The translations under genes were made by a program, and so were the position numbers. The notes under the pieces are model-generated. The model made no database searches, had not been told where the DNA came from, and saw only the letters and a list, made by a program, of their open reading frames with translations. Below are positions 7,536-53,713 of a stretch of DNA of 64,000 bases, in pieces (within the stretch, counting starts at the first letter, position 1; each line of letters begins with the position of its first letter). The stretch is from Acidimicrobiales bacterium (lineage in GTDB: Bacteria; Actinomycetota; Acidimicrobiia; Acidimicrobiales; SZUA-35), in NCBI GenBank assembly GCA_047974625.1, contig JBKECK010000054.1, positions 4,988-68,987 of the forward strand. The letters are read 5' to 3'.

Positions 7536-7626
7536 CCGACCATCGAACCACGGTCGCCTCGCCGGTGGCGACCTGCGACGCACCGGGTCGTTCGACTCCC
7601 CCTGAGTGGAGTCGCTCAAGAGGGGG

Positions 7627-10027: not shown

Positions 10028-10581
10028 CCGGGCCCGGGAGCCGGCCGGGCCGGGAGCGGGGGGCGAGCCTGGTGGAGTTCGCCATCGTCGGGCCCCTGTT
10101 CCTGCTCCTGATCTTCGCTCTGATCGACCTCGCAATCGGGGTGTTCAGCCTGAACGCGTCCGAGGCCGCGGCGGCCAACGCCGTCCGGGTGGGGGCGATC
10201 GCCCGGGACACCCCCGACGCCGACGACCGGATCATCGAGGCCTTCAAGTCCACCGGCTCGCTCGGGATCGGGGTCAAGGTCAACCGCCTGGTGGTGTACC
10301 GGCCCGAGACCGACCGGGACGGGCCCAGCGCGGCGTGCCGGGCGGGGACGAACGAAACCGGCTGTGACGTGTACGGGGGATCCCGGCTCGCGAATCCGGG
10401 CTCCCTATGCCGTACCGGCGGCGGCGGCTGGTGCCCCGCCGAACGGGTCGGTGGGGAACTCATCGGGGTCTGGTTCGAAGTCGAGTACGGCGGGCTCAGC
10501 GGCATCATCCCGGTGCGGTGGCGACGGGACGGCTATGCGGTAGCCCGGATCGAACCCGACGTGGCGGGGGTCGACCGCTGA
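10024..10581 (+). CDS. TadE-like pseudopilin / pilus-assembly protein
   Basis: From ORF 9532..10581. ATG 10024 overlaps the upstream stop (ATGA). RERGASLVEFAIVGPLFLLLIFALIDLAIG is the TadE-like N-terminus. Confidence 0.75.
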   Translation: MTGPGSRPGRERGASLVEFAIVGPLFLLLIFALIDLAIGVFSLNASEAAAANAVRVGAIARDTPDADDRIIEAFKSTGSLGIGVKVNRLVVYRPETDRDGPSAACRAGTNETGCDVYGGSRLANPGSLCRTGGGGWCPAERVGGELIGVWFEVEYGGLSGIIPVRWRRDGYAVARIEPDVAGVDR

Positions 10582-10618
10582 ACGCGGCCGACCCCCCGTT
10601 GCCACCAGGCTCTGCGCC

Positions 10619-11596
10619 CTAACTCCCCTTGGGCGTGGCAAACACCTGGGTCCAGTAGGTGCGGTAGGCGCCACCCTCGGCCAGGCCCACCCCGAGCTCA
10701 GTCAGCGAGCAGTTGAGGATGTTGGCCCGGTGGCCCGGAGAGCCCATCCAGGCTGTCACCACCGAGGCCGCGGTCGGCTGGCCGGCCGCGATGTTCTCCG
10801 CCGCCCGGGAATAGGAGTAGCCGGCGTCGGTGATCCGCTGGAAGGGGGAGCGGCCGTCCAGACCGGTGTGGTCGAAGTAGCTGTTGTCGCGCATGTCGGT
10901 GCTGTGCCCGGCGGCCACCTGGGCCAGGGTGGAGTTCCAGGCCAGGTCCGGGCAACCGACCTTGCGCCGTTCGGCGTTAGTGAGTTCGAGCACGGCTCGG
11001 GGACCCGTCGCCGGGGGCTGGGTGGTTGGGGGCTTGGTGGTTGGGGGCTGGGTGGTTGGGGGCTTGGTGGTCGGGGGCTGGGTGGTCGGGGGCTGGGTGG
11101 TCGGGGGCTGGGTGCTGCTGGTCGGGCGCGAAGTGGTGCTGGTCGACGGCCGGGTGGTCGGAGGTTGGGTGGTGCTGGTCGGAGGCTGGGTGGTGCTGGT
11201 CGGAGGTTGGGTGGTCGATGGGGTGGCCGTCGTGGGCGGAGCCACCACGGAGGTCCCCGGTGAATCGGTGGTCGTGGTCGTCGGTCGACCCGGTCGCTCG
11301 GGCCTGCTCGGCCGTTCCGGTTTGGTGGGCCGTTCGGGCTTGACCCGATGGTTGTTGTCCGGCCGGAACCGGGCACCGGTCACGCGGTGGTGGGCCCATC
11401 CCCAGACCCAGCCTCGCTGGCCCCACGTGTCGCTCGATCTCCGGTCCGGCGGTTGTTCGGCTCGGGTCTCCTCGGCGGCGGCCTCACGGTCGGCGGCCGG
11501 GCCGGCGACGATCAGGACACCACCCATGGCCATCACCATGAGGGCGGCCATGAGCAGGCGGGCGGGGGCGACACGGGCGACGTTGCTCCTGAGCAT
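10619..11596 (-). CDS. Secreted/anchored CAP (SCP/PR-1-like) domain protein with Pro/Thr-rich linker
   Basis: N-terminal hydrophobic anchor LLMAALMVMAMGGVLIVAG, then a ~110-aa P/T repeat region. The C-terminal CAP domain shows LTNAERRKVGCPDL, HSTDMRDNSYFDH, AAENIAAG and WMGSPGHRANIL. Confidence 0.8.
   Translation of the reverse strand: MLRSNVARVAPARLLMAALMVMAMGGVLIVAGPAADREAAAEETRAEQPPDRRSSDTWGQRGWVWGWAHHRVTGARFRPDNNHRVKPERPTKPERPSRPERPGRPTTTTTDSPGTSVVAPPTTATPSTTQPPTSTTQPPTSTTQPPTTRPSTSTTSRPTSSTQPPTTQPPTTQPPTTKPPTTQPPTTKPPTTQPPATGPRAVLELTNAERRKVGCPDLAWNSTLAQVAAGHSTDMRDNSYFDHTGLDGRSPFQRITDAGYSYSRAAENIAAGQPTAASVVTAWMGSPGHRANILNCSLTELGVGLAEGGAYRTYWTQVFATPKGS
11003..11344. repeat. Coding low-complexity tandem repeats (15-bp units; TTQPP/TTKPP and PERP peptides)
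   Basis: Seen directly: ggtggt[tc]gggggc[tg]g units are reiterated. They encode PPTTQ/PPTTK x~9 and KPERP/SRPERP repeats. Confidence 0.85.
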
Positions 11597-11722
11597 CCGG
11601 ACACGTTACGCACATTTGCCCAGCTTGGTGGTGGCATTCCGGAAAGAACTCCTGATCAGAGGGGGTTGGCGGGCGATTCCGGGGATTCACGCTGGTCGCA
11701 GCGCCGACGGGCCCACCCGTTG

Positions 11723-14700
11723 TCAGGAGATGAGATTCCCGTATCGGTGCATGGTCCGACTGACCGTCTGCTCGCGGAGGTAGTGGAGCAGTTCGACCCG
11801 CCCGGAACGGGTGATCGGATTGTCGACCAGGTGCACCCCGTGCCGGTGGGCGACGCTCCGCACGACGGGCTCGGGGGGACCGACGAGGCGGATCCGTTCC
11901 ACGTCGAGGGAGTCGAGCCGGTCGGCCAGCTCCCGGGCCGGCTCCTCGTCGGCCCACGACACCGTCACCGGCACCCCGCACCGGTCGGCGGCCGCTGTCA
12001 CCCGGTCCACCAGGGTCCCGGTCTCCGGGTCGTCCCGGTCGGCGCTCACCCGGACGAGAACGCCGCGGAGGGGCTGGTACCGGAACCGGTTCGACTCGCA
12101 GGCCAGGCCGATGGGGTCGTGGTCGCGGCTGAACACGGTCCGCCATGCCTCCCCGTCGTCGCAGCGGGCGGCGTCGAGCCAGTCCCGATCCCGTCGTTCG
12201 TTGTCGGGACGCCAGCGGCCGAGCTGCTGGACGTAGTTGGGGCCTCCCGCCTTGGCTCCCGGCCCGACGCTCGACCGTTTCCAGCCCCCGAAGGGTTGGC
12301 GGGCCACCACCGCCCCGGTGATGCCCCGGTTGATGTAGGCGTTGCCAACCTCGACCCGGTCCAACCAGTGGTCGATCTCGGCCGGGTCGAGGCTGTGGAT
12401 CCCGCCGGTCAGGCCGAACCCGGTGGTGTTCTGGGCGGTGAGGGCGGCGTCGAGGTCGTCCACGGGCATCAATCCGAGGACGGGTCCGAAACACTCGGTC
12501 TGGTGGAACCAGCTTCCCGGCCGGACCCCGAGGCGGACCCCGGGCCGCCAGAGCCGCGGCCCGTACTCGGCCGGCTCCACCAGCCAGTCCTCCCCCGGTT
12601 CCAGGGTGGTGAGCGCCCGCTCCAACTTGTCGCCCGGGCTGGTGGCCAGCGGGCCGACCTCGCTGGCCAGCTCGTCGGCGGGCCCGACCACAATGCTGTT
12701 CACGGCGTCGACCAGCTGACGCCGGAAACGGTCCGACCGGTACACCGAGCCGACGCAGATACCCAGGCTGGCCGCCGAGCACTTCTGGCCCGCGTGGCCG
12801 AACGCGGAGCGGACCAGGTCGGTGACGGCGAGGTCGATGTCGGCGTTCGGGGTGATCACCAGGGCGTTCTTGCCCGAGGTCTCGGCCAGGAGGCGGAGGT
12901 CGGGACGCCAGCCGAGGAACAGTTCCGCCGTCTCGTAACCCCCGGTGAGGACCACGGCACCCACGTCGGGGTGGGTGATGAGTCGTCGACCCACCTCGTT
13001 CTCGGGCACGGCGGCGAGTTGGACGGTATCGGTGGGGATCCCGGCCGCCCACAGGCACTCGGCCACGACCCGGGCGCACCGCACCGCCTCCGGCGCCGGT
13101 TTGAGGATCACCGCGTTGCCCGCGGCCAGGGCGGCCAGGACACCGCCGGCCGGAATGGCCACCGGGAAGTTCCAGGGCGGGGCCACCACCACGACCCCGA
13201 ACGGTTCGAACCGGGCGCCGGGTGCGTCGGCGACACCGTCCACCCGATCGCCGTACCAGCGGGCGAAGTCGACGGCCTCGGACACCTCGGGGTCGGCTTC
13301 GGCGATGACCTTGGACGTCTCGGTGACCATGACCGCCACCAGGTCGCCCCGCCGGGCGGCCAGCTCGTCACCGACCCGGTACAGCAGGCGACGGCGTTCC
13401 GCCCCCGACCGCTCCCCCCATGCCTTGCCGGCGGCTACCGCCCGCTCCACCACGGCGTCCAGCCCGCCGGGTCCCTCGATCCGGTCGACGGGGGCCGGGA
13501 CCGGCGGAATGGTGTGGGCCGCCCCGGCCACCACCGCGGCCGCCCAGGCCCGGTTGGCGGCCAGCGCCGGATCGGTGTCGGGCTCGTTGCCGAAGGCCCG
13601 GTCGAGCGGGGTCGCGGTCGGGGGCCTGGTGCGGTCCTGGCGCCGCCGGGGGCCGGTCGCGGTACACCACCGGTCGTCGACGGCGGTCCGGAACCGTCGA
13701 GCCTGCTCGGTGAAGGCGTCGGAACCGAGCGCCATGCCGTGGAGGTGGCGGACGAAGTTCTCGCGGGCCGTGTTCTCCTCGAGGCGGCGGAACAGGTAAC
13801 TGATGGCCACGTCGAACTCGGGCCGGGCCATGATCGGGGTGTACAGCAGCGGTCGGGCCCCCTCCCCGATCAGGATCCGGGCGTAGGTGGGCGCCATCCC
13901 CTCCAACATCTCCAGTTCCACTCGCTCTCCCACCCCCCGCCGCTCGGCCAGCAGGCTGGCCCAAGCCAGGGTGAACAGGTTGTGACTGGCCACGCCGAGG
14001 CGCACGGCCCGGCTCCGCTCCGGCGTCATGAGCCAGTCGAGGCACCGCAGGTAGTTGGCGTCGGTCTCCGCCTTGGTGTCGTAGGGGGCCTGGGCCCAGC
14101 CGTGGAGCTCGGCGTCGACCCGTTCCATGGCCAGGTTCGCCCCCTTGACCAGGCGCACCTTGATCCCTGCTCCACCCCGGCGTCGACGGTCGAGGGCCCA
14201 GTCCACCAGGTTCCGCAGGGCGTCGAAGGCGTCGGGTAGGTAGGCCTGGATGACGATGCCGGCCTCGACGGCGGCGAACTCGGGTCGGTCGAGGACGGTG
14301 GTGAAGGTCTCGATGGTCAGGTCGAGGTCGTGGTACTCCTCCATGTCGAGGTTCACGAAGGTGGCCGGGGTGGTGGCGTTGGCCCGATCCAGGAGGGCGG
14401 CCAGGCGGGCGCCGGTGAGGGCCACCGCCGTGGCCCGGTCCCAGGCGCTCACCCGGGGGGTGATGGCCGACAACTTGACCGACACGTAGTCGATGTCGGG
14501 TTCGGCCAGGAGCGCCTCGGCCTGCTCGAACCGGCGGTCGGCCTCGGCGCTCCCAAGCACGGCCTCGCCGAGCCGGTTGACGTTGAGGGCGAACCCCTCG
14601 GAGCGCCGGTGGGCGAGATGACGCCGCAGACCGGCCGGATCGGCGTCGAGGACGAGATGCCCCACCATCGACCGCAGCCGGCGTTCGGCGAGGGGCATGA

Positions 14701-15046
14701 CGAGCTGGGGCAGCCGGGGAGCCAAGCGGCCCCCGGTCCGGAGCAGTTGCCGGTCGACCGGGCCGAGGAAACCGGGCAGGTGGGATTCGGCCACCAGCGC
14801 CGAGAGCTGGTGGGCGGCCACCTCCGGGTCGGCGGCGCGGATGACCCGGTCGACGAACCGCATGGTGAACCGAACCCCGTCCGGATCGCCCACGATCCGG
14901 TGAAGCTGTTCAGCGTTGCGCTCCTCCTGGCGGGTGGCCGAGTGGCGGGCTGCCCCGGTCCACGAGGCCACCAGCGCGATGGCCGGTTCGGCCAGGGAGG
15001 CGGCGTCCTCCGGATCGTCCCGATCGGGTGTAGTTGCGGGAACCAT
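11723..15046 (-). CDS. putA: Bifunctional proline dehydrogenase / L-glutamate gamma-semialdehyde (P5C) dehydrogenase
   Basis: 1107 aa. The N-terminal ProDH barrel shows FALNVNRLGEA, YVSVKLSAI and VNLDMEEY. The C-terminal ALDH shows ETSGKNALVI and FGHAGQKCSAAS (catalytic Cys). Confidence 0.9.
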   Translation of the reverse strand: MVPATTPDRDDPEDAASLAEPAIALVASWTGAARHSATRQEERNAEQLHRIVGDPDGVRFTMRFVDRVIRAADPEVAAHQLSALVAESHLPGFLGPVDRQLLRTGGRLAPRLPQLVMPLAERRLRSMVGHLVLDADPAGLRRHLAHRRSEGFALNVNRLGEAVLGSAEADRRFEQAEALLAEPDIDYVSVKLSAITPRVSAWDRATAVALTGARLAALLDRANATTPATFVNLDMEEYHDLDLTIETFTTVLDRPEFAAVEAGIVIQAYLPDAFDALRNLVDWALDRRRRGGAGIKVRLVKGANLAMERVDAELHGWAQAPYDTKAETDANYLRCLDWLMTPERSRAVRLGVASHNLFTLAWASLLAERRGVGERVELEMLEGMAPTYARILIGEGARPLLYTPIMARPEFDVAISYLFRRLEENTARENFVRHLHGMALGSDAFTEQARRFRTAVDDRWCTATGPRRRQDRTRPPTATPLDRAFGNEPDTDPALAANRAWAAAVVAGAAHTIPPVPAPVDRIEGPGGLDAVVERAVAAGKAWGERSGAERRRLLYRVGDELAARRGDLVAVMVTETSKVIAEADPEVSEAVDFARWYGDRVDGVADAPGARFEPFGVVVVAPPWNFPVAIPAGGVLAALAAGNAVILKPAPEAVRCARVVAECLWAAGIPTDTVQLAAVPENEVGRRLITHPDVGAVVLTGGYETAELFLGWRPDLRLLAETSGKNALVITPNADIDLAVTDLVRSAFGHAGQKCSAASLGICVGSVYRSDRFRRQLVDAVNSIVVGPADELASEVGPLATSPGDKLERALTTLEPGEDWLVEPAEYGPRLWRPGVRLGVRPGSWFHQTECFGPVLGLMPVDDLDAALTAQNTTGFGLTGGIHSLDPAEIDHWLDRVEVGNAYINRGITGAVVARQPFGGWKRSSVGPGAKAGGPNYVQQLGRWRPDNERRDRDWLDAARCDDGEAWRTVFSRDHDPIGLACESNRFRYQPLRGVLVRVSADRDDPETGTLVDRVTAAADRCGVPVTVSWADEEPARELADRLDSLDVERIRLVGPPEPVVRSVAHRHGVHLVDNPITRSGRVELLHYLREQTVSRTMHRYGNLIS

Positions 15047-15060
15047 GCCCCCAGAATGAC

Positions 15061-15078
15061 CTCACCCGCCCGGGTGAG
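15061..15078 (-). promoter_or_regulatory. Small GC hairpin 15-32 nt upstream of the putA ATG
   Basis: CTCACCC-GCCC-GGGTGAG is a 7-bp stem with a 4-nt loop. It lies downstream of the SWEET-like gene and just upstream of putA. Terminator or 5'-UTR element; undecided. Confidence 0.35.
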
Positions 15079-15097
15079 GTAGGATCGCGCTCCGATC

Positions 15098-15165
15098 CGG
15101 CCCAATCAGCAGGGCCGACGTTCGGCCCAATCAGCAGGGCCCACGTTCGGCCCAATCAGCAGGGC
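15098..15165. repeat. 25-bp direct repeat x3 (cggcccaatcagcagggcc[g/c]acgtt)
   Basis: Unit starts are at 15098, 15123 and 15148. The third unit matches for 18 nt and contains the stop codon (15156-15158) of the upstream minus-strand gene. Confidence 0.9.
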
Positions 15166-15782
15166 ACGGCCGTGGCCGCGGCACGCCAGCGCCCCCAGCG
15201 GATCACGATGATCATGGCCATGATCATCCCCATGGTCCCGCCGACCAGCAGGGCAGGATCGGTGACCGTGGCCCCGTAGACGGCCCAAATGGCGGCTTCG
15301 AGGGCAGCCATGGCCCAGGTGGCCCCGGACACGCCGGCCAGGTCACGGCTGAGCAGCGACCGGACGGTGGCCGGGGCGAACTGGACCCCGTAGCACAGTC
15401 CGATGGCCAGTCCGGCCGGGCCCCAGCCGCCGACGGCCAGGGGGACCACGGGCACGGCCCCGAAGGCGGCCGCCCCGGCCAGCAGGGGGCGCCACAGCCG
15501 CTCTCCGACCAGCCGGTGGGCCTGCCCGGCCAGGACCAGGTAGAGCACCCCGCTGACCGCCGACACCGGCAGGATGGCCCATCGCCCAGTGGACGCCGCG
15601 TACACCGTCCACCACAGGTTCATGGCGATCCCCACCCCCACCCAGCCGAGCGAGAGTCCTTCCACCGTGGCCTGGCGGCGGACCCGGAGGACCTGGGGGG
15701 CGATCATGGCCGCGCCCATGATGTTGGCGACGACAAGGGCGATGGCCAGCAGTACGGCCGGGAGGGAGGAGAACACCACCAC
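15156..15782 (-). CDS. PQ-loop / SWEET-like membrane protein with two triple-helix repeats (predicted 3+1+3 TM)
   Basis: The first repeat, MIAPQVLRVRRQATVEGLSLGWVGVGIAMNLWWTVYA, closely resembles SemiSWEET (LPQVLRV...LW..YG). The second repeat is VQFAPATVRSLLSRDLAGVSGATWAMAALEAAIWAVYG. I count seven hydrophobic segments by eye. Confidence 0.7.
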   Translation of the reverse strand: MVVFSSLPAVLLAIALVVANIMGAAMIAPQVLRVRRQATVEGLSLGWVGVGIAMNLWWTVYAASTGRWAILPVSAVSGVLYLVLAGQAHRLVGERLWRPLLAGAAAFGAVPVVPLAVGGWGPAGLAIGLCYGVQFAPATVRSLLSRDLAGVSGATWAMAALEAAIWAVYGATVTDPALLVGGTMGMIMAMIIVIRWGRWRAAATAVPC

Positions 15783-15916
15783 GAGTGTAAGGGTCTATAT
15801 CTGTTTTGCTCCAGGAGTGGCACGGATGGTTGCTCACCCCAGAACTTTTCGCTATCCGGTCGGGGCCCGGCGACCGGGCCCGGAGCGGACCGGGTCCCGC
15901 CGCTACCCTGGAGGCG

Positions 15917-16489
15917 GTGCATGTTGCGTCGACCCCGGCTTCGGAGATCCGCATCACCATCGGGGTGCTGGTCGACCTGACCAACCGGCTCGGCGCCGTC
16001 GACGACCGGCCCGGCCTCGTCCCCGAGGAGGTGCGGGCGGTGTTGGCCGACGCCGGCTTCACCCGGGCCCGTTCGGCCCCGGCGGCTGCCCTGACCCGGC
16101 TGACCGGGCGCCTGGTGGATCTGGCCGTCATGGTCGAGCGGTTCCCGGGCCTGGACACCGCCGCGGCCGCCTCGATGGTCAACGAACAGCTCACAGAGCT
16201 GCCGGTGGCCCCGGCGGTGGTGGAGCACGACGGTGTCGGCCCGCACATCCACTGGACCCCGTCCACGGCCCGTTTCGACGATCAGGTGGTCGCCGACATG
16301 CTGATGGCCCTGGCCCAGGAGTTGTGCGGGCACGGCCCCGACCGGTTCGGGCGCTGTGCCGCTGAGGGGTGTGACCGGCTGTTCCACGACGTGACCCGGA
16401 ACCACTCCCGCCGGTTCTGCAGCGATCCCCGCTGCGCCAGCCGGACCCACACCGCCGACCACCGGGCCCGGCGGGCCGGGGCACACTAG
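15917..16489 (+). CDS. CGNR zinc-finger domain protein (ABATE + zf-CGNR family)
   Basis: ORF 15806..16489. The C-terminus CAAEGCDRLFHDVTRNHSRRFCSDPRCASRTHTADHRARR follows the C..C..F.D.S/TRN..RR.C....C.(N)R pattern. Start is uncertain (TTG 15806 or GTG 15917). Confidence 0.7.
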   Translation: MHVASTPASEIRITIGVLVDLTNRLGAVDDRPGLVPEEVRAVLADAGFTRARSAPAAALTRLTGRLVDLAVMVERFPGLDTAAAASMVNEQLTELPVAPAVVEHDGVGPHIHWTPSTARFDDQVVADMLMALAQELCGHGPDRFGRCAAEGCDRLFHDVTRNHSRRFCSDPRCASRTHTADHRARRAGAH

Positions 16490-16494
16490 CGGTC

Positions 16495-16884
16495 ATGGCT
16501 CACGACCCCGGCCGGCTTGATCCGGCGCTCGCAGCCTTCCTGGCCGAACGCCATCTCGGCACCCTCACCACCCTGCGGCCCGACGGGTCGCCCCATGTGG
16601 TCGCGATCGGGTTCTCCTTCGACCCCAGCTCTGGTGTGGCCCGCGTGATCACCTTCGCCTCGAGTGTGAAGGCGGCCAACGCGGCCCGTGGCGGCCGGGC
16701 CGCGGTGGCCCAGGTCGACGGCGGCCGCTGGCTGTCGCTAGAGGGCCCGGTGCGGCTCGTGACCGACCCGGACGGGGTGGCGGCCGCCGTGGCCGGGTAC
16801 ACGGCCCGGTACCGCCGGCCCAAGGAACGGCCGGATCGGGTGGCGATCGAGATCAGTGTGGAACGGATCCTCGGCCGAGCCTGA
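16495..16884 (+). CDS. PPOX-class (pyridoxamine 5'-phosphate oxidase-like), probably F420-dependent, protein
   Basis: 129 aa. LGTLTTLRPDGSPHVVAIGFSF...ARVITF...A.V.QVDGGRWLSLEG fits the small split-barrel flavin/F420 family. This family is commonly paired with CGNR proteins. Confidence 0.7.
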   Translation: MAHDPGRLDPALAAFLAERHLGTLTTLRPDGSPHVVAIGFSFDPSSGVARVITFASSVKAANAARGGRAAVAQVDGGRWLSLEGPVRLVTDPDGVAAAVAGYTARYRRPKERPDRVAIEISVERILGRA

Positions 16885-18994: not shown

Positions 18995-19510
18995 TCAGCC
19001 GGAACCGAGCTCGAGGATCCGGTCGGCCCGGGCCCGGGCCACCGGCCGGTTCGAGGCGGCCAGCACCGTCATACCGGCCGTGGCCAGTCGGTCCCACAGG
19101 GCGATCTCGGTGTCGATGTCCAGGGCGCTGGTCAGGTCGTCGAGCACGAGGAGCTCGGGCTCGTGGACCAGGGCCCGGGCCCCGGCCGCCCGCTGGGCCT
19201 GGCCTCCGCTGAGCCGGAGCCCGCGGGACCCGATGAGGGTGTCGAGGCCGTCGGGCATGGCCGCCACGTCGGCCTCCCCGCCACGTCGGCCTCCAGGCGG
19301 CCAGGCGGATCGCCTCGGTCAGAGCCCCGTCGCCCAGATCGTGGCCGAGCCGGAGGTTGTCGCCCAGCGACTCGGCGAACAGGCGGGGCACCTGAGCCAC
19401 GGACGCGCACCAGCCCCCGTTCGACGACCAGGTCGATCCCGTGGAGGTGGCGCGACGGCACGGTGAGGCCCCGGACCTCCAGGCGGTCCGGGGGTAGCCG
19501 AGCCGGCCGT
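18995..19510 (-). pseudogene. Decayed ABC-transporter ATP-binding domain (frameshifted, Walker A deleted, no TMD)
   Basis: Pieces of one NBD lie in different minus-strand frames. LEVRGLTV..LHGIDLVVERG comes first. VAQVPRLFAESLGDNLRLG (Q-loop) follows only ~5 codons later, so the ~45 aa containing GxxGxGKS/T are absent. ORF 18995..19267 then carries LSGGQAQR, LLVLDD and SNR where the H-loop His is expected. A 17-bp tandem duplication sits at the frame break. Confidence 0.8.
19261..19294. repeat. Perfect 17-bp tandem duplication (ccgccacgtcggcctcc x2)
   Basis: Seen directly: 19261-19277 is identical to 19278-19294. It lies inside the ABC pseudogene between the Q-loop piece and the signature-motif piece. 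Confidence 0.95.
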
Positions 19511-19670
19511 CCGGGCCCGGGAACCGGCGGTCCCCCGAGGATCGATATCGGCTGGTGGCCGACCAGGGGGTGGACCCGGGCCCGGGTGCTGTCGGCGGGG
19601 CCACCAGAACCTCCATCCGCCCGGCCGACACGTCGTGGCGGCGGCGATGGATCAGTGATTTCGGCGTTGA

Positions 19671-21698
19671 TCAGCCAGGCGGGGGCGAGCCGTACACCTG
19701 GGCCACCCGGTGGGCCAGGGCCCCGACCGCATCGGGGTCGAGACCGACCCCGGAGGGCAGCGAGATGACCGAGGCGTGGATCCGGGCCGACACCGGACGC
19801 GGTTCGCCCAGGCCCAGCAGGGCGGCCTGGGACGGGAACTGGGCGGCCGCGCCCACGCCGGCGCGGCCGAGCTCGGCCACGAGGTCGTCGCGGGACCAGG
19901 GCGAAGCGGGGGGCAGGAGGAACGGGGCGTGGACCCGGGTGCTGCGGCCGTGCTCGTGTTGGGGTTCGAACCCCAACGGCTCCAGGATCTGCCGGTACCG
20001 GTCGTAGATCCGGCGCAACCGGGACGTGTTGCCGGCCAGTTGGGGCCACGCCTCCACCAGGTAGGCCCCGTTGATCTCGGGCAGGAGGGCCTGACGGGTC
20101 AGGAAACGCGGCTCGGTCCGGAGTCGTTCGATCTGCCGACGCGGCCCGATCAGGGCGCCGCCCATACCCGCGGCGTGCACCGGCTTGGTGAACGAAAAGC
20201 TCACGGCGACCAGATCGACGATCCCGGCCACCCTCTGGCCGTGGCGGTCGGCCCCCAGGCTCTCGCAGGCGTCGACGATGAGGGGCACCCCGGCCGATCG
20301 GCACCGGTCGGCCAGGCCCGGCCAGTCACACGGAGTGCCGTAGTTGTCCACGGCGACCACGGCGTCGATCCCACCCTCGTCCAGGTGTCGGCCGACCTCG
20401 ACCGGATCGATGTTGAAGTCGTCGGGTCGGACGTCGACGAGCAGGGGCCGGGCCCCGAGGAGGAGGACGCTGGCGGCGACGGCGTGGAAGGCGTGGTCGG
20501 GCACGATCACCGTGGAACCGGGGCCCACGCCGCAGAGCTGCAGGCCGCGCACGAGGGCATCGGTGCCCGACCGCAACATCACCAGGTCCTGGTGGTCGCG
20601 GAGGCCGATCTCGGTGGCCAGCAGGGCGGCGGCCCGGTCGGCCCAGCCGCCGGCGACCCGGTAGCTGCCGGTGCGGACCAGCCGGTCAACCGACCGGTCG
20701 AACGCGGCCCGGGCCCGGCCGTCCAGCCCGCCCGGTGTGACGAGCGGGGCGGTGGCGGCCCGGGTTCGCCCGGCGATGAGCCGGTTGCGGTCCGGCCCGA
20801 GGAGGACCCGGGGCCGGTGGTAGGCGATAGTGCGGGCCAGCCGGTCGATGCCCTCCTCGAGGGACCACCGGTACCCGAAACCAAGCGAGATCAGGACCGA
20901 GGGATCCATGGTGTACGAGGTGTCATCGGCCGGGTCGCCCAGGCGGACCGGGAGACCGAGGCGGTGGCCGATCAGGTGGGCCACCTCGGCCACCGTCCGG
21001 TTGCCGTCGGGATGGACCACATTCGCCACCGGGGGCACATCGCCGTCGAGTTCGGCCGCGAACAGGGCGGCGCGGGCCATGTCGTCGACACACACGAACG
21101 GGCGGGCGGCCGCCCCGTCGGACTCCAGGGTCAGGCTCCCCTCCACCACCCCGGAGTGGGTGAGCCGGTTGACCACCAGGTCGAACCGGGTGGCGGGACT
21201 CGCACCGAAGCCGGATCCGAACCGCAGGGCGACGGGGGTGAACCCGTCGGATCGGAGGGCCAGTACGCCGGCCTCGGCCGCCGCCTTGGTCTCACCGAAC
21301 AGATCACGGGGGGCCAGGGGTTCGTCCTCACGGGCCGGTTCGGGGGTCCGACCGTAGACGGCCGCGCTCGAGGCGTGGACGAACCGGCCGACCCCGGCCT
21401 GACGGCACCGCCGGGCCAGTTCGACCGTCGCCCGCACGTTGAGGTCCACGGCGTCGGCGGGGAAGGCGGCGCAGCTTCCCGGATCGGGGAAGGCGGCCAG
21501 ATGGAACACCAGGTCGAACCCGGTCAGGTCGTCGACGGTGAGCGCCTCGACGCCGCGCCCGTCGCCCGGCCGGAACCATCCCCGGTCACAGCCCACGAGT
21601 TCGTAGCCGTGGCGCAGGAGCAACCCGGTGAGCACCGAACCGACGTAACCTCGATCGGCGGTCACCAAGGCTCGGCGCCCAGCACGGAATGAGGCCAT
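19671..21698 (-). CDS. Fusion protein: SDR epimerase/dehydratase-like domain (degenerate active site) + DegT/DnrJ/EryC1/StrS-type sugar aminotransferase
   Basis: ORF 19671..21776(-), ATG 21698. The N-terminal half (FVHASSAAVYG, RFGSGFG) is extended-SDR-like, but has VTADRGYVG in place of TGGAGFIG and LFGETKAAAE in place of YxxxK. The C-terminal half (SGTDALVRGL, VDNYG, VAVSFSFTKPVHAAGMGGAL) is a DegT-type PLP enzyme. Confidence 0.8.
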   Translation of the reverse strand: MASFRAGRRALVTADRGYVGSVLTGLLLRHGYELVGCDRGWFRPGDGRGVEALTVDDLTGFDLVFHLAAFPDPGSCAAFPADAVDLNVRATVELARRCRQAGVGRFVHASSAAVYGRTPEPAREDEPLAPRDLFGETKAAAEAGVLALRSDGFTPVALRFGSGFGASPATRFDLVVNRLTHSGVVEGSLTLESDGAAARPFVCVDDMARAALFAAELDGDVPPVANVVHPDGNRTVAEVAHLIGHRLGLPVRLGDPADDTSYTMDPSVLISLGFGYRWSLEEGIDRLARTIAYHRPRVLLGPDRNRLIAGRTRAATAPLVTPGGLDGRARAAFDRSVDRLVRTGSYRVAGGWADRAAALLATEIGLRDHQDLVMLRSGTDALVRGLQLCGVGPGSTVIVPDHAFHAVAASVLLLGARPLLVDVRPDDFNIDPVEVGRHLDEGGIDAVVAVDNYGTPCDWPGLADRCRSAGVPLIVDACESLGADRHGQRVAGIVDLVAVSFSFTKPVHAAGMGGALIGPRRQIERLRTEPRFLTRQALLPEINGAYLVEAWPQLAGNTSRLRRIYDRYRQILEPLGFEPQHEHGRSTRVHAPFLLPPASPWSRDDLVAELGRAGVGAAAQFPSQAALLGLGEPRPVSARIHASVISLPSGVGLDPDAVGALAHRVAQVYGSPPPG

Positions 21699-21797
21699 GG
21701 AAGCACTGAACGTAGTGAGCACGACGGACCTGTGTCCAACGCCGTCCCCGGGCGCCGGTCGGGCCGGTGGCGCCACCCACCCGTCCCGGCCCGGTGG

Positions 21798-21831
21798 GCG
21801 GACCGACCGATGATGCGGACCGACCGATGAT
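21798..21831. repeat. Perfect 17-bp tandem duplication (gcggaccgaccgatgat x2)
   Basis: Seen directly: 21798-21814 is identical to 21815-21831. The second copy carries the ATG (21827) I use for the Alg14-like gene. The first copy creates ATGATG at 21810. Confidence 0.95.
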
Positions 21832-22294
21832 CCAGCGGGCGTCGGCCGCGGCCATGTTCGTCTCCAGCCCGGGCGGTGTGCTCCTCGACGCCGTGGCCGT
21901 GGCCGACGCCTGGGTCGGCCCGGTGGCCTGGACGGCCACCGACGCCCCGGACACCAGGGAACGGCTCGACGGCCGGGACGTGGACTGGGTCCAGACCGAA
22001 CCCGCCGGCCGCGCCCCCCGGGACCTCCTGGCCGAGACCCGCCGGGCCCGTCGCGTCCTGGTCGACCGCGACACGGAGTGGGTGGTGTCGGCGGGCACGG
22101 CCCTGGCCGTACCCTGGTTCGCGGCCGCCGCCGGCCTGTCGATACCGAGCCTCTGGATCGAGACCCTCAACCTCCACGGGCGCCAGGGTCGTGCCGCGGC
22201 GATCTGCAGCCGCCTGGCCGAGCGGGTCCTGGTCCAGCGGCCGGACCGCCTGCTGGCCCACCGCCGGGCCGTGCTGGTGGGTGAGCTCTACTGA
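21827..22294 (+). CDS. Alg14-like / PssD-type glycosyltransferase membrane-anchoring subunit
   Basis: ORF 21767..22294. MFVSSPGG...WVVSAGTALAVPWFAAAAGLSIPSLWIETLNLHGRQGRAAAICSRLAERVLVQ resembles Alg14/PssD/Cps14F (STGAG.AVP...A.LLG...IYIES.AR). Start is uncertain (GTG 21767, ATG 21827 or ATG 21854). Confidence 0.65.
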   Translation: MIQRASAAAMFVSSPGGVLLDAVAVADAWVGPVAWTATDAPDTRERLDGRDVDWVQTEPAGRAPRDLLAETRRARRVLVDRDTEWVVSAGTALAVPWFAAAAGLSIPSLWIETLNLHGRQGRAAAICSRLAERVLVQRPDRLLAHRRAVLVGELY

Positions 22295-22307
22295 TGGGTT
22301 CAGAGTA

Positions 22308-23588
22308 ATGGCCCGTGTCTTCGCCACCGTGGGCATGGGGCCCTGGCCCTTCGACCGTCTGGTCGACGCCCTGGAGGCCGTCTCGGCCGACCACGACGTC
22401 TTCGCCCAGATCGGAACGACCACCCGGACCCCCACCTACCCCCACCGGCGGTTCATCGACCCGTCGGAGTTCGATCGGCGCCTGGCCGAGGCCGACGTCG
22501 TCATCACCCACGCCGGGAACACCGTCCGTGTGGTCCAGCGGACCGGCCGGGTCCCGATCACCATCGCCCGGGAGGCGGCCCGGGGGGAGATGGCCAACGA
22601 CCACCAGGTCCGGTTCGTCGAGCACGAGCGGTCCCGCAGCCCGATCATCGTGCTCGACGGCGACCTCTCCGGGCTCGGGGCGGCGGTCGACGGCTTCGAC
22701 GCCCTGGCCGGGACGGTCGGGCAACGGCCCGTCCCTCATCGTTCCCGGCCCGCTGAGGTCACCCGCCTGCTCACTCCCCTGTGGCGGGACACCCGACGCA
22801 CCAACCCCCTGCACGACGACCCCACCCGCCGACTCTCCTGGTCGTTCGCCCAGCTCGCCGACCTGGACGGGCCCCACCTCGATCTCGGCTGCGGAGCGGG
22901 TGCGCTGGTGACGGCCCTGAGCGGGCACACCGACCGCCCCGTGGTGGGCGCCGACCCGATGCCCCGGGCCGGGCCGGGGGTGGTGGGCCTCGTCCGGATC
23001 GGGGGCCGCGATCCCCTGCCCTTCCCCGACGCGGCCTTCACCTCGGTCTCGATGCTGGATTCCCTCGAACACGTCTGGGACGAGTCGGCCGTCCTGGCTG
23101 AGGTCCGACGGGTGCTGGCTCCGGGCGGGCACCTCGTGGTCACGGTGCCGCGGCGGCACTGGCTCGGCTTCCTCGACCCGGACAACGCCAAGTTCCGGTG
23201 GCCCCGCCTGCACCGCCGGGCGTATTCCCTCCGGTTCGGAGCGGCCACCCACCACCGCCGGTTCGTCGACCGGGACGACGGTATGTGCGGTGACCTGGCG
23301 GTGGAACGGGGTGAACACCACCATTACGGGGCGGCCGAGCTGTTCGAACGCCTCGACGGGGCCGGGTTCGACGTGGTCGGGTGCGACGCCGCCAACCTGT
23401 GGTGGCGGCTGGCCGACGTGCCCCGACTGCTGCTGCCGGAGTCGCTTCGGCGCCTCACCCACCCGATACTGAGGGTGGACGCCCGGTGGTTCCACCAGGC
23501 CAACCTGTTCGTCGTAGCGACGCGGGGCCGAGGAGCACCCCGGGCCGGCGCCGTTCCCGGCCCCGAAAGGACGACATGGCGGCAGTGA
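22308..23588 (+). CDS. Fusion protein: Alg13-like / PssE-type glycosyltransferase catalytic half (GT28 C-terminal-like) + class I SAM-dependent methyltransferase
   Basis: From ORF 21876..23588, ATG 22308. The N-terminus MARVFATVGMGPWPFDRLVDAL...VFAQIG...VITHAGNTV is Alg13/PssE-like. The C-terminal half (HLDLGCGAGALVTAL, VLAPGGHLVVTVP) is a Methyltransf_11-like domain. Confidence 0.7.
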   Translation: MARVFATVGMGPWPFDRLVDALEAVSADHDVFAQIGTTTRTPTYPHRRFIDPSEFDRRLAEADVVITHAGNTVRVVQRTGRVPITIAREAARGEMANDHQVRFVEHERSRSPIIVLDGDLSGLGAAVDGFDALAGTVGQRPVPHRSRPAEVTRLLTPLWRDTRRTNPLHDDPTRRLSWSFAQLADLDGPHLDLGCGAGALVTALSGHTDRPVVGADPMPRAGPGVVGLVRIGGRDPLPFPDAAFTSVSMLDSLEHVWDESAVLAEVRRVLAPGGHLVVTVPRRHWLGFLDPDNAKFRWPRLHRRAYSLRFGAATHHRRFVDRDDGMCGDLAVERGEHHHYGAAELFERLDGAGFDVVGCDAANLWWRLADVPRLLLPESLRRLTHPILRVDARWFHQANLFVVATRGRGAPRAGAVPGPERTTWRQ

Positions 23589-24826
23589 ACGACCCCGTGC
23601 CCCCGACCGGCCGTCCGGTGCCGGTGGAGATCGGGCGAACCCGGCCCCGGGTCCGACCGGGCCTGACCGCACCGGTTCGGTCCGGATCGGTTCCCTCCAC
23701 ACCGGCTTCTTCTGGGCCGGCTCGTTCCCGACGAGCCCGCCCGGCCCGGGCCGGGCGGCTGGGGCGGGCGGGCCGGGCCCTGCGGCTCGCCCGGTTCGTC
23801 GCCGGGCTGGCCGTCAAGGAACGGATCGACCCGTCGTGGCCGGTGCACCCCCTGGTCGCCGAGCTGTTCCTCACCGACAACTGCAATCTGGCCTGCACGA
23901 GCTGCGCCTGCTGGCGTGACCACACCCGCCACGAGCTGTCCACCGATGAATGGTGCGGAGTGATCGACCAGCTCGCCGCCCTCGGCTTCATCAAGCTCAA
24001 CTTCACCGGCGGTGAGGCTCTCATCCGGCGGGACGCGGCCACCATCATCGGCCACGCCCACCGGCGCGGTATCGCCGACCTCCACCTCAACACCAACGGC
24101 ATCCTGCTCGACGACGAGCGCCTGGCCGAGGTCCTCGACGCCGGGGTGACCAGCTTCAACATCTCCGTCGACGGGCCCGACCCCGCCTCGCACGACGCCA
24201 TCCGCGGGTTCGACGGGGCCTTCGACACCACCATCGAGGCCATCCGACGGGTCATCGCATCCGGGCCCGGCGTTGCGGTCCGCATGAACTTCACGGTGCT
24301 GGCCGGCAACGCCCACCAGCTGCCGGCCATGGCCGACCTGGCCGAGACCCTCGGGGTCCGGCTGTACCTGAACCTGGGGACCGACCGGACCTTCCTGTTC
24401 CGCCACCAGGACGTCACCGCCCAACTCGACGTCGACGAGGCCGTCCTGCGCGACGCCCTGGCCGAGCTCGAACGCCGGTCCCGGGCCGGTTCGGGTTCGG
24501 GCCACCTTCCGTCCCGCCGGGCCCTCCGGTACATCCCGGGGCACTTCGAGTTCGAGTCGGTGCCGATGGTCCCCTGCGTCGAATCCCAACTGAAGCTGAT
24601 GATCCGCTCCACCGGCGCGATCGGGGGCTGTTGGGGCCACGACGGCACGTTCAACGTCCGGGACCGGTCGATCCGGTCGGTGATCGACTCCCCGGAGTAC
24701 CGGGAGGAGCATCAGCGCTTCTTCGCCAAGGACTGTGTCCGCTGCGGGTCGAACTACGCGCTCAACCTGAGGCTCCGGCCGGCCGGCCTGGCCGAGGAGG
24801 CCCAGACCCGCTGGAGGACCCGGTGA
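23576..24826 (+). CDS. Radical SAM protein with basic Pro/Arg-rich N-terminal extension and 4-Cys C-terminal (twitch/SPASM-like) region
   Basis: From ORF 23381..24826. ATG 23576 overlaps the upstream gene by 13 nt. FLTDNCNLACTSCAC is the CxxxCxxC cluster motif, with FTGGEALIRRD and NTNG also present. The C-terminal Cys residues are CVESQ...GGCWGH...CVRCG. Confidence 0.85.
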   Translation: MAAVNDPVPPTGRPVPVEIGRTRPRVRPGLTAPVRSGSVPSTPASSGPARSRRARPARAGRLGRAGRALRLARFVAGLAVKERIDPSWPVHPLVAELFLTDNCNLACTSCACWRDHTRHELSTDEWCGVIDQLAALGFIKLNFTGGEALIRRDAATIIGHAHRRGIADLHLNTNGILLDDERLAEVLDAGVTSFNISVDGPDPASHDAIRGFDGAFDTTIEAIRRVIASGPGVAVRMNFTVLAGNAHQLPAMADLAETLGVRLYLNLGTDRTFLFRHQDVTAQLDVDEAVLRDALAELERRSRAGSGSGHLPSRRALRYIPGHFEFESVPMVPCVESQLKLMIRSTGAIGGCWGHDGTFNVRDRSIRSVIDSPEYREEHQRFFAKDCVRCGSNYALNLRLRPAGLAEEAQTRWRTR

Positions 24827-25620
24827 CCGATCCTGGCCATCCGGGCCGGCGGGTGAGCCCCGAGGAGTTCTACGGCCGCCTCGCCCCCGGCTACCGGGAA
24901 GCCTTCGACGTCGCTCATCGCAAGGCCTACGACCGTTTGGCCTGGGAGGCGGTGGAAGCGGGCCTCGCTCCCGACTCCACCGTGGTGGACGTGGGTTGCG
25001 GGGTGGGCCGTTGGGCGGCCGCCCTCATCGCCCGGGGTCACCGGGTGATCGGGGTGGAGCCCAGCCCGGGCATGGTGGCCGCGGTCCGGGCGGCCTCCCT
25101 GGGATCGCGCTTCACCCTCCACCAGGCGACCGTTGACCGGGTCCGGATCGCGGCCGGGAGCGCGGACGCCGTGGTGGCCATGGGCAGTGTCCAGTACGCC
25201 CCCGACCCGGCCGCCTCGATCGCCCGGATGGCCGGGTGGCTCCGCCCCGGGGGTCGCATCTGGGTGCTGGTCGACTCCCTCGGCGGGCTGGTGGGTGAGC
25301 TGCTCCGGCGGGGTGACGACCTCCAGGCTCTCGCCCGGGCCGCCTCGGCCACGGGTCGGCTCTCCTCGGGCCCGTACACGGTGGAGCACCACCTCTTCGA
25401 CGCCGCCCGCCTGGAACGGGCCCTGCTCGACGCCGGCCTGACCGACGTGACCGTCTCGGGACTGTTGGTGGGCTGGAACAGCAAGGACCGCGACGAGGCC
25501 CAGCGCGACCTGACGGCCCATTGGGAGACGGCCCTCGACCGGGAGCGCCGGCTGGCCTCGATCCGGGCTCTGGCCGATCTGGGCAAGCAGCTCCTGGCCT
25601 ACGGCCGCCGGCCGTCCTGA
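24823..25620 (+). CDS. Class I SAM-dependent methyltransferase
   Basis: From ORF 24631..25620. GTG 24823 overlaps the radical-SAM stop (GTGA). VVDVGCGVGRWAAAL, RVIGVEPSPGM and LRPGGRIWVLV are present. Confidence 0.8.
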   Translation: MTDPGHPGRRVSPEEFYGRLAPGYREAFDVAHRKAYDRLAWEAVEAGLAPDSTVVDVGCGVGRWAAALIARGHRVIGVEPSPGMVAAVRAASLGSRFTLHQATVDRVRIAAGSADAVVAMGSVQYAPDPAASIARMAGWLRPGGRIWVLVDSLGGLVGELLRRGDDLQALARAASATGRLSSGPYTVEHHLFDAARLERALLDAGLTDVTVSGLLVGWNSKDRDEAQRDLTAHWETALDRERRLASIRALADLGKQLLAYGRRPS

Positions 25621-36936: not shown

Positions 36937-37739
36937 GCGGCCACCACCCCCATCCGCCGGAGGTGACCGGTCGCTCCCCCCAGGAGGCCGACGTCGACGG
37001 TCCGACCCGCGGCCCCGGCCGGCCACTCGCCCCCGAGGTGAAGCTGGTGGGCCTGTTCGGTTTCGTCACCGGGGTGGCCGTCACCCCCCGGCACGGGGTC
37101 GTCGTCCTGGTCGGCGACCTGCTGGTCCTGATCGCGGTGGTGGCCTGGTTCCGGCTCCCGGCCCGGGTGGTGGTGCGGCGCCTCGCCGTGATCGTCCCGT
37201 TCCTCCTCGCCGCGTCCGCCCTGCCGCTGGTGGCCGGGGGGGACCGGGTCACAGTGGCCGGGGTCGGCCTGTCGGTCGAGGGCCTGTGGGCGGCCGCGGC
37301 GATCGGGGCCAAGGCCGTGCTTGGCGCCGGGGCCAGCATCGTGGTGGCCACCAGCACGCCGGTGGCCGAACTGACCACCGGTCTGGGGCGGCTCCGCCTC
37401 CCCCCGGTGGTGGTGTCGATCGTGGCCTTCATGTTCCGCTACCTCGATCTCATCGGTGACGAGTCGGCCCGGATGCGCCGGGCCATGACCGCCCGGGGGA
37501 TGCGGTCCCGCTGGTTGGGTGACGCCGGTCCCGTCCTGGCCGCCACCGGTGCCCTGTTCGTCCGCAGCTACGAGCGGGGCGAGCGGGTCCACCTCGCCAT
37601 GGTGGCCCGCGGCTACACCGGCACGATGCCAGCGCCGGACCGGGCGGCGGCGCCGGGCCGCCGGTGGCTGGCCGCCGTGGCGGTGACCGCCCCGGCCTGG
37701 TTGCTGGCTGGGTGGGCGGCGTGGGGGCCGGGCCGGTGA
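36933..37739 (+). CDS. cbiQ: ECF transporter transmembrane (T) component CbiQ
   Basis: GTG 36933 overlaps the cbiM stop (GTGA). Multi-TM protein with FRYLDLIGDESARMRRAMTARG...SYERGERVHLAMVARGY, typical of CbiQ/EcfT. Confidence 0.8.
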   Translation: MSGHHPHPPEVTGRSPQEADVDGPTRGPGRPLAPEVKLVGLFGFVTGVAVTPRHGVVVLVGDLLVLIAVVAWFRLPARVVVRRLAVIVPFLLAASALPLVAGGDRVTVAGVGLSVEGLWAAAAIGAKAVLGAGASIVVATSTPVAELTTGLGRLRLPPVVVSIVAFMFRYLDLIGDESARMRRAMTARGMRSRWLGDAGPVLAATGALFVRSYERGERVHLAMVARGYTGTMPAPDRAAAPGRRWLAAVAVTAPAWLLAGWAAWGPGR

Positions 37740-53683: not shown

Positions 53684-53713
53684 GACCCGGGGATCATAGA
53701 CGGATCGTCGCGG

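Follow-up and report, generated by a model that had tools for sequence, protein, structure and literature searches.

A five-gene locus of an Acidimicrobiales bacterium is a minimal, partly decayed copy of a putative sugar-tailoring cassette found in three phyla

PssD/PssE from Rhizobium, Cps14F/Cps14G from S. pneumoniae, WelK/GelK and eukaryotic Alg14/Alg13 are split or fused MurG-like glycosyltransferases of the GT-B fold that act on lipid-diphosphate-linked sugars. The characterised members of this MurG/Alg13-14/PssDE lineage are specific for lipid-linked acceptors. Radical S-adenosylmethionine (SAM) enzymes acting on carbohydrates are few (DesII, BtrN, AprD4, BlsE, AbmM and a handful more), and each of them has revealed new chemistry. 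BtrN is the twitch-type radical SAM dehydrogenase of butirosin biosynthesis, and BlsE acts beside a glycosyl-forming enzyme, a DegT-type aminotransferase and a methyltransferase. Enzymes of these classes are encoded together in five genes (G1 to G5) of an Acidimicrobiales bacterium, represented by a metagenome-assembled genome, within a stretch of 64,000 nucleotides (assembly GCA_047974625.1, contig JBKECK010000054.1) that was analysed as a whole and is called the window here. Together they make up a minimal and partly decayed version of a conserved cassette of six modules, which recurs in at least 70 other loci from three phyla.

Genes were called with a codon-position GC plot (GC3 frame plot), by which real genes were split from the many spurious open reading frames (ORFs) in this DNA with a G+C content of about 72%. 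At the locus the plot supports one gene on the minus strand and four on the plus strand. The minus-strand gene G1 (19671-21698) encodes a fusion of a short-chain dehydrogenase/reductase (SDR) and a DegT-type aminotransferase (675 aa, its ATG being codon 27 of a 701-aa ORF); the SDR half corresponds to 20800-21698, with an approximate border between the halves. A divergent spacer of 128 bp (21699-21826) separates it from the plus-strand genes. Of these, G2 (21827-22294, 155 aa) codes for an Alg14/PssD-like protein and G3 (22308-23588, 426 aa) for an N-terminal Alg13/PssE-like donor-binding domain (22308-22760) followed by a C-terminal class I SAM methyltransferase domain, MT-A (22830-23588). 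The putative twitch-type radical SAM enzyme is encoded by G4 (23576-24826, 416 aa) and a second class I SAM methyltransferase, MT-B, by G5 (24823-25620, 265 aa). G2 and G3 are separated by a gap of 13 nt, G3 and G4 overlap by 13 nt, and G4 and G5 share a GTGA overlap of 4 nt, through which G5 is probably translationally coupled to the radical SAM gene. An initial annotation of this DNA had described the same five packed genes with the same junctions and spacer; its description proved exact in the GC3 plot and in a second assembly, and its domain inventory, including a split Alg13/Alg14-type glycosyltransferase, was borne out by Pfam and NCBIfam. The second assembly is independent (Logan assembly L082, run SRR30067261, same organism). 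It is identical to the window in 5577 of 5577 bases, and its gene calls for the plus-strand genes (155, 426, 416 and 265 aa) match those given here. When the spacer and the cluster were scanned for a sigma-70-like promoter, a terminator and an Rfam element or riboswitch, none was found above noise.

Conservation of the gene set in related genomes had been set beforehand as a test, and the outcome is clear. A scan of one genome per species gave 76 distinct loci, and 72 non-redundant loci with a G4 orthologue were used for counts by tblastn. Near the G4 orthologue, MT-B was found in 72 of the 72 loci, the Alg14-like and the Alg13-like modules in 69 each, the DegT module in 68 and MT-A in 63. The complete set of six is seen in 60 of the 72 loci, over a median span of 5.7 kb, and several of the gaps fall at contig ends. 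The suggestion that the cluster might be unique was not upheld: it is widespread in Actinomycetota, Chloroflexota and Alphaproteobacteria. The carriers include Acidimicrobiales, Micromonospora (one complete genome), Actinoplanes, Actinoallomurus, Kribbella, Nocardioides, Streptosporangiaceae, Frankiaceae and Solirubrobacterales, as well as Chloroflexota, Sphingobium, Roseiarcus fermentans and Xanthobacteraceae. The same gene set is seen in the neighbourhoods of a Sphingobium metagenome-assembled genome (MAG), a Chloroflexota MAG and one more metagenome contig. Soil Actinomycetota commonly carry the cassette, which is near-universal among the Micromonospora and Actinoplanes genomes sampled. Within Micromonospora its local synteny is conserved. 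It is self-contained, and its genomic contexts vary.

We give about even chances to the reading that the locus represents the minimal form of a widespread cassette that makes and attaches a tailored sugar by the following steps. What the sugar is, what accepts it, which positions are changed, which radical reaction takes place and in which order events proceed are inferred from the relationships described below. G2 and the N-terminal domain of G3 would form a heterodimeric glycosyltransferase of the MurG/Alg13-Alg14 type (GT-B fold), transferring a nucleotide-activated sugar to a membrane-proximal acceptor. This acceptor would most likely be a polyprenyl-(pyro)phosphate-linked sugar, with its priming transferase encoded elsewhere in the genome. 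G1 would oxidise a sugar hydroxyl and transaminate the resulting keto group to an amine; the position is probably C4, because the nearest NCBIfam families of the aminotransferase half are LegC, PseC, WecE and ArnB. The two class I methyltransferases may methylate the sugar, MT-A being tethered to the glycosyltransferase and MT-B coupled to the radical SAM gene. G4 would introduce a radical change in the sugar ring of the BlsE/DesII kind (dehydration, deoxygenation, decarboxylation, deamination or epimerisation). In fuller cassettes, the product would be primed by a PglC-type transferase; sulfation, UDP-glucuronate chemistry and export or flipping through an ATP-binding cassette (ABC) exporter may also be involved.

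The glycosyltransferase is recognised from both of its halves. G2 has no Pfam match, and its NCBIfam matches are weak (PssD, 1.5e-5; MurG, 8.7e-4). A profile of 18 G2 orthologues finds the N-domain of MurG in the PDB (E=0.002), the Sphingobium orthologue matches Pfam Alg14 at 4e-4, and a SSSGGV loop is conserved. In the N-terminal domain of G3, NCBIfam finds PssE (PssE/Cps14G-like, 1.6e-11) and the WelK glucuronosyltransferase (2.9e-9). The profile scores of the split glycosyltransferase lie under the curated cut-offs (25 vs 110 bits and 44 vs 120 bits), so that G2 and G3 appear as distant relatives of PssD/PssE and not as equivalogs. The invariant THAGNTV...GEMxNDHQ motifs of the G3 N-domain resemble the donor-binding motifs of Alg13/MurG. 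A PDB sequence search with the profile of this domain gave no significant Alg13 or MurG match, and the fold assignment therefore rests on its AlphaFold2 (AF2) model (pLDDT 94.6), for which MurG and the donor domains of GT1 GT-B enzymes are the best PDB matches. Alg13-methyltransferase fusions of the G3 type are abundant; several are named 'SAM-dependent methyltransferase/UDP-N-acetylglucosamine transferase subunit ALG13' in JGI, and some homologues carry PF04101. Adjacent acceptor and donor halves, as expected of a split MurG-like GT-B enzyme, were found in 69 of the 72 loci. Judged by sequence and modelled fold, G2 and the G3 N-domain are assigned to a distant split glycosyltransferase of the MurG/Alg13-14 type.

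The same gene arrangement is known from PssD/PssE, Cps14F/Cps14G, WelK/GelK and Alg14/Alg13, where the two halves are likewise encoded side by side with the acceptor half first. The NDHQ-type donor motif of G3 and the priming transferase that adjoins some of the cassette loci add to this likeness. In contrast to the PssD/PssE group, however, the cassette pair sits with a radical SAM enzyme and an SDR-aminotransferase, and not in an exopolysaccharide or capsule locus with a polymerase or flippase. In addition, half of the loci have a donor half that continues into a SAM methyltransferase: 31 loci encode the Alg13-like domain and MT-A as one protein, and 31 as separate genes. These numbers come from a frame-aware test, as ORF length over-counts fusions where high-GC frames stay open. 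The Alg13-methyltransferase fusion that the initial annotation had pointed out is real in the window, but only about every second locus has it.

The methyltransferase domains themselves are readily identified. The C-terminal domain of G3 matches Methyltransf_11/23/25 in Pfam (aa 184-357, E ~1e-13) and G5 matches Methyltransf_11/25 (E ~1e-17). Motif I of the class I SAM methyltransferases is present in both, as DLGCGAG in G3 and DVGCGVG in G5. In 67 of 69 loci the radical SAM gene is immediately followed by that for MT-B. The PDB neighbours of both are generic: MitM, RebM and a glucose O-methyltransferase for MT-A, and N-, O- and C-methyltransferases for MT-B.

In G1, Pfam recognises an Epimerase domain (PF01370, 2e-32, aa 37-247 of the 701-aa ORF) and a DegT domain (PF01041, 1.4e-41, aa 395-690), and SDR-DegT fusions of about 700 aa are present in most cassette loci. 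The DegT half is intact in the window. The lysine that forms the Schiff base with pyridoxal phosphate (PLP), in SFSFTK, and the DACESLG motif are kept in all orthologues; with the PLP lysine and the aspartate for the pyridine nitrogen, G1 has the residues expected of a DegT/DnrJ/EryC1/StrS aminotransferase. This family consists of fold-type I PLP enzymes, and in its dehydratase members a His takes the place of the Lys. The best NCBIfam matches of this half are the C4-aminotransferases LegC, PseC, WecE and ArnB, all far under the cut-offs, and DesI is among the weak matches. Its PDB matches comprise WbpE, perosamine synthase, ArnB and others. For the SDR half, the PDB matches include MoeE5 and a UDP-glucuronic acid (UDP-GlcA) epimerase/decarboxylase.

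The SDR half of the window copy differs from that of its family. GxxGxxG and YxxxK, typical of extended SDRs, are kept in all 53 cassette orthologues that were aligned and in the nearest library representatives, which were picked out by searching exhaustively through 1.8 billion proteins and include P0241 (52% identity). The loss is confined to the window genome, where the fold still matches. Here the Rossmann motif reads TADRGYVG (first Gly to Ala) and FGETK replaces YxxxK (catalytic Tyr to Phe, F170). Both losses are identical in the independent assembly L082. The S/T motif of the window SDR half is SSAAVYG, which is GalE-like and without the dehydratase Asp/Glu. It is characteristic of one of two SDR-DegT clades, the Acidimicrobiales clade. 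In the other, main clade, the motif is SS[VI]E[VI]YG and a 40-residue insertion with CPPWR is present; the Ser/Glu/Tyr/Lys set of these SDR halves is reminiscent of UXS, ArnA and GMD. Most carriers outside the Acidimicrobiales (for example L036:11843-13882, minus strand) have this insertion of about 40 residues, placed ahead of YxxxK and marked by the conserved motif CPPWR...ADPTGRW(T)Y. The SDR half of the main clade may constitute an unusual SDR subfamily, and the one fusion tested gave no NCBIfam match at E<=1e-5.

An SDR oxidation followed by a DegT transamination is also the logic of the C-terminal ArnA dehydrogenase with ArnB, and of UXS-type enzymes, which lead from UDP-GlcA through a 4-keto-pentose to a 4-amino-pentose. 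ArnB is found among the DegT matches, and UDP-glucose dehydrogenase is encoded in five cassette loci. The UXS/ArnA/GMD-like S..E..Y..K set, however, is present only in the main-clade SDR half, whereas the window clade has SSAAVYG without the Glu. Unlike in ArnA/ArnB, the SDR and the aminotransferase of the cassette are fused in one protein of about 700 aa, and ArnC, ArnT and formyltransferase partners are not found.

G4 matches Radical_SAM in Pfam (PF04055, 5e-22) and has hundreds of homologues at 50-69% identity. The initial annotation had noted a CxxxCxxC motif and four C-terminal cysteines, and all of these are invariant in 22 homologues: C103, C107 and C110 form the CxxxCxxC within an invariant CNLxCxSCxCW, and the C-terminal set is C334-X12-G-X4-C352 ... 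C387-X2-C390. A full SPASM domain has seven cysteines (CX9-15GX4C...CX2CX5CX3C...C), and the twitch domain is a shortened version with one cluster. The C-terminal domain of G4 lacks the CX5CX3C continuation of a full SPASM domain. With only four C-terminal cysteines and no CX5CX3C, its auxiliary domain is predicted to be a one-cluster twitch (half-SPASM) and not a full SPASM domain. In combining CxxxCxxC with a C-terminal auxiliary cysteine domain in its twitch form, G4 has the hallmarks of the SPASM/twitch subgroup of the radical SAM superfamily, in which a partial TIM barrel holds CxxxCxxC and its [4Fe-4S] cluster, where SAM is cleaved. Its N-terminal region of about 55 aa is disordered and poorly conserved.

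The AF2 model of G4 (pLDDT 81) was compared to known structures with Foldseek, which ranked SkfB (3e-16) first, then BlsE (5e-14), PqqE, DesII, MoaA, SuiB and CteB. PDB sequence searches agree, and BlsE is the second-best match there (3.5e-17). It is also the best full-length structural match, with a TM score of 0.71 (normalised to BlsE). The sugar enzymes among the structural neighbours include BlsE, DesII, AbmM and BtrN. Since the relatives are a mixture of peptide maturases and sugar enzymes, the reaction of G4 is not assignable by similarity alone. BlsE has been described as a radical SAM enzyme with cytosylglucuronic acid as its substrate (PMC3715490). The BlsE structure (PDB 7VOB, blasticidin S pathway) is only about 20% identical to G4 in sequence. 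Unlike BlsE, G4 bears a helix conserved at its N-terminus and invariant motifs of its own, and no nucleobase-related genes were found with the cassette.

BtrN had been offered as a comparison for G4. The twitch type holds, and BtrN has the same four-cysteine arrangement, CX12GX4C...CX2C. BtrN is not the closest relative, however: it appears at rank 40 in Foldseek, behind SkfB, BlsE, PqqE, DesII and MoaA (E 1e-7, TM 0.40 normalised to the query), and is absent from the PDB sequence matches at E<=0.001. Neither the window nor the related loci contain genes for inosose synthase or other aminocyclitol enzymes, as would be expected of a BtrN-like system with its 2-deoxy-scyllo-inosamine pathway.

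The rank of SkfB raises the possibility that G4 is a SPASM/twitch enzyme acting on a peptide, by cross-linking or epimerisation, ahead of its glycosylation and methylation, in the manner of ribosomally synthesised and post-translationally modified peptides (RiPPs). PqqE, SuiB and CteB follow among its neighbours, and many weak NCBIfam matches are to peptide maturases. But the domain is of the four-cysteine twitch type and not a seven-cysteine SPASM, and the conserved partners are sugar enzymes. Such a role is extremely unlikely, since the 72 loci share no conserved ORF for a precursor peptide and no recurrent gene for a RiPP recognition element, a protease or a leader-related function.

The combination of an SDR, a DegT aminotransferase, a radical SAM enzyme and methyltransferases had also led to the proposal of a desosamine-like route (DesIV/DesI/DesII/DesVI). 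A 4,6-dehydratase, which supplies a 4-keto-6-deoxy sugar, would be followed by a 4-aminotransferase, a radical SAM deaminase and an N,N-dimethyltransferase; the resulting dTDP-deoxysugar would be destined for an envelope acceptor or for a secondary metabolite. The DegT aminotransferase, the radical SAM enzyme and the SAM methyltransferase(s) are indeed shared with DesI/DesII/DesVI, DesI is a weak match of the DegT half, and DesII occupies Foldseek ranks 4-10 for G4. Its alignments to G4 are poor, however (TM 0.45-0.53, rmsd 7-9 A), and G4 keeps four invariant auxiliary cysteines, whereas DesII is not known to have a twitch auxiliary cluster. Neither SDR clade contains the Thr-Asp-Glu triad of the dehydratases, and in the window SSAAVYG stands in its place, with the catalytic Tyr and the first Rossmann Gly lost as well. 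Genes for a nucleotidyltransferase, a 3-aminotransferase or other second aminotransferase, a polyketide synthase, a nonribosomal peptide synthetase or aglycone formation were found neither in the window nor in the 72 loci, and the macrolide context is missing. The wide spread and the synteny in Micromonospora also speak against a strain-specific antibiotic sugar. The desosamine logic finds no support here, and we regard this route as very unlikely.

Information on the acceptor comes mainly from the genes that accompany the cassette (counted by tblastn unless stated). A PglC/WbaP-type phosphoglycosyl transferase (Bac_transf) is present in nine loci of Chloroflexota, Alphaproteobacteria and Actinomycetota, and a WecA-type transferase in one, so that a priming transferase adjoins the cassette in ten loci from three phyla. 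This is the best evidence on the acceptor and favours a polyprenyl-phosphate-linked one; it also lends support to the general idea of the initial annotation, a methylated amino sugar that is probably transferred onto a lipid-linked acceptor. Stand-alone SDRs occur in 17 loci, sulfotransferases in nine and UDP-glucose dehydrogenase in five. Intact ABC exporters with fused transmembrane and nucleotide-binding domains lie within 10 kb in three loci by tblastn and in about ten by clustering. Extended cassettes are found in Streptosporangiales-like genomes (L026, L018, L030 and L055), where paired ABC exporters and genes for a stand-alone SDR, a PglC-type priming transferase, UDP-glucose dehydrogenase and a sulfotransferase are added. 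In L026 (an Actinomycetes MAG, 7246-16807), nine co-directional genes encode an SDR, the Alg14-like protein, Alg13-MT, the radical SAM enzyme, MT-B, SDR-DegT, a priming transferase, a sulfotransferase and UDP-glucose dehydrogenase. To deduce the full product, these four loci offer the best point of departure. When 1196 ORFs from the cassette loci were clustered all against all, no universal partner emerged beyond the core (a flippase, polymerase, ligase or precursor peptide was sought), and the next commonest clusters cover at most 13 loci.

Several findings weigh against the proposed transfer of a tailored amino sugar to a lipid-linked acceptor. Most of the other loci have no priming transferase, flippase or polymerase, and in the 64-kb window a priming transferase, flippase, polymerase and ligase were not found. 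A transmembrane scan of the five proteins gave no convincing membrane segment in any of them, which makes a soluble acceptor possible. In particular, G2 differs from Alg14, PssD and Cps14F in that it has no N-terminal membrane anchor. It opens directly at the first beta-strand, and its sole hydrophobic peak (Kyte-Doolittle 1.62) is a core Rossmann segment; the likeness to Alg14 that had been claimed for G2 applies to the acceptor half and fails for the anchor. As for the chemistry, the top structural and sequence neighbour of G4 is a peptide maturase, and PDB similarity does not separate N-, O- and C-methylation for either MT-A or MT-B. Between the Acidimicrobiales clade and the rest, the identity of the DegT halves is only about 30% and the SDR subtypes differ, so that the chemistry may vary from clade to clade. 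Finally, with the SDR half having lost the catalytic Tyr and the first Rossmann Gly, a canonical NAD-dependent oxidation by G1 is doubtful in the window organism.

The lack of membrane segments and, in most loci, of a priming transferase would also fit a soluble small molecule of the blasticidin kind. The split glycosyltransferase would attach a sugar, perhaps glucuronate, to a small soluble acceptor (nucleobase, cyclitol, amino acid or cofactor), and a BlsE-like remodelling, transamination and methylation would lead to a cytoplasmic or secreted metabolite. The similarity of G4 to BlsE and the self-contained nature of the cassette in varied genomic contexts agree with this, as do uronate-related matches that recur throughout the cassette (PssDE/WelK, MoeE5, UDP-GlcA epimerases, WbpE, BlsE and UDP-glucose dehydrogenase). 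Each of these matches is weak, and together they are suggestive of glucuronate-derived chemistry. On the other hand, a PglC-type priming transferase adjoins the cassette in three phyla, the characterised members of the glycosyltransferase lineage are specific for lipid-linked acceptors, and no conserved candidate gene for forming an acceptor was found. A soluble product is considered somewhat unlikely.

The copy in the window itself looks eroded, both in the SDR half of G1 and in its neighbour. Directly downstream of G1 and on the same strand lies the remnant of an ABC exporter ATPase (18998-19520, minus strand). At 18998-19285 it encodes the last ~97 aa of the nucleotide-binding domain, with LSGGQ and Walker B, and matches the C-terminal part of Pfam ABC_tran (4.9e-6); no membrane domain is present. 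By BLASTX it is 43% identical over 97 aa to the cassette-near exporter of the nearest relative (L007). A perfect duplication of 17 nt (two copies, CCGCCACGTCGGCCTCC) at 19261-19294 shifts its frame. When one copy is removed, the similarity grows by about 60 aa to about 19450 and includes a degenerate Walker A. The decayed exporter ATPase that the initial annotation had suspected is real, and its sequence marks it as a probable frameshifted pseudogene. A second perfect 17-nt duplication (two copies, GCGGACCGACCGATGAT) at 21798-21831 spans the start of G2 and doubles its start context. The first ATG (21810) opens a mini-ORF of six codons, whose TGA overlaps the ATG of G2 at 21827, and both copies yield an identical upstream context for the G2 start. 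The stretch covered by L082 includes this duplication and excludes that at 19261-19294. Slippage-prone DNA or an assembly quirk may lie behind the presence of two such duplications within 2.6 kb.

These features allow the further reading that the window cluster is a decaying remnant whose ancestral product is no longer made, which is compatible with the proposed function of the family. The loss of the catalytic Tyr and the first Rossmann Gly only here, reproduced in a second assembly, the frameshifted and truncated ABC ATPase, the duplication at the G2 start and the lack of any priming transferase or accessory gene in 64 kb are in line with decay. Yet G2 to G5 are intact ORFs with every family-invariant residue, including all eight cysteines of G4, the GC3 codon bias is strong across the five genes, and the duplication preserves an identical start context. 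Moreover, the keto-sugar could come from a different SDR of the cell, and there are SDR dehydratases, PglF among them, that work without the Tyr. A defunct remnant appears unlikely, and the erosion seen here may help to define the essential modules of the cassette.

No cassette protein of the window reaches any curated NCBIfam cut-off, and full-text literature searches for the gene combination found no description; a search centred on Micromonospora returned only gentamicin and aminoglycoside papers on other genes. This agrees with the statement of the initial annotation that the set of fusions is not a described pathway. Every enzyme class and the general logic of sugar tailoring and glycosyl transfer are known; undescribed, in the literature searched, is this conserved combination, in which an anchorless split glycosyltransferase with a tethered methyltransferase is joined by a twitch radical SAM enzyme that always comes with a second methyltransferase, and by an SDR-DegT fusion. 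Tentatively, the cassette could represent a previously unrecognised and widespread envelope or metabolite modification, in which an amino sugar is methylated and remodelled by a radical SAM enzyme, with an anchorless split glycosyltransferase and a new type of radical sugar chemistry. As an envelope glycoconjugate, the product would be a new component of actinobacterial cell-surface biology; a soluble product would define a natural product class that is both new and widespread. Since the carriers include cultured, tractable genera (Micromonospora, Actinoplanes, Kribbella, Actinoallomurus and Roseiarcus), the product is directly testable. A role in anti-phage defence was considered separately and rejected, as PADLOC gave only generic radical-SAM/pVip and methyltransferase matches.

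In the window the cassette is flanked by housekeeping genes (PutA, Fpg, glyoxalases, HAD, Rv2466c-like, macro-domain, 6PGD and 6PGL), and none of the accessory genes of the fuller cassettes (priming transferase, sulfotransferase, UDP-glucose dehydrogenase and the like) was found in its 64 kb. Some minor features were recorded outside the cassette. An ARAGORN call for a tRNA-Arg(CCG) at 1599-1675 (minus strand) lies inside a GC3-supported plus-strand ORF (1440-2504) and is probably a false positive, Rfam finding no tRNA in the window at the gathering threshold. No ORF passes the strict GC3 filter at 2504-4185, nor at 10027-11723, a stretch that holds G-rich tandem repeats of 15, 21 and 57 nt at 11012-11217 (CGGGGGCTGGGTGGT and related units). 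The G+C content rises to 0.75-0.78 at 2001-4000, 36001-38000 and 50001-54000, with an AT skew of -0.25 and -0.27 in the first two. Between a putA-like gene (start 15046) and the gene at 15156-15782, a 25-nt unit is repeated 2.7 times in tandem at 15098-15165 (CGGCCCAATCAGCAGGGCCGACGTT, 97% matches) and could be operator-like. An AT-rich 18-nt unit, repeated 2.7 times at 61441-61488 (TACGGACAATATTGTTTG, 96% matches), lies between the gene starting at 61065 (minus strand) and the 3' end of that at 61541-64000 (minus strand); in DNA of otherwise 72% G+C, this intergenic repeat could be a regulator-binding site.

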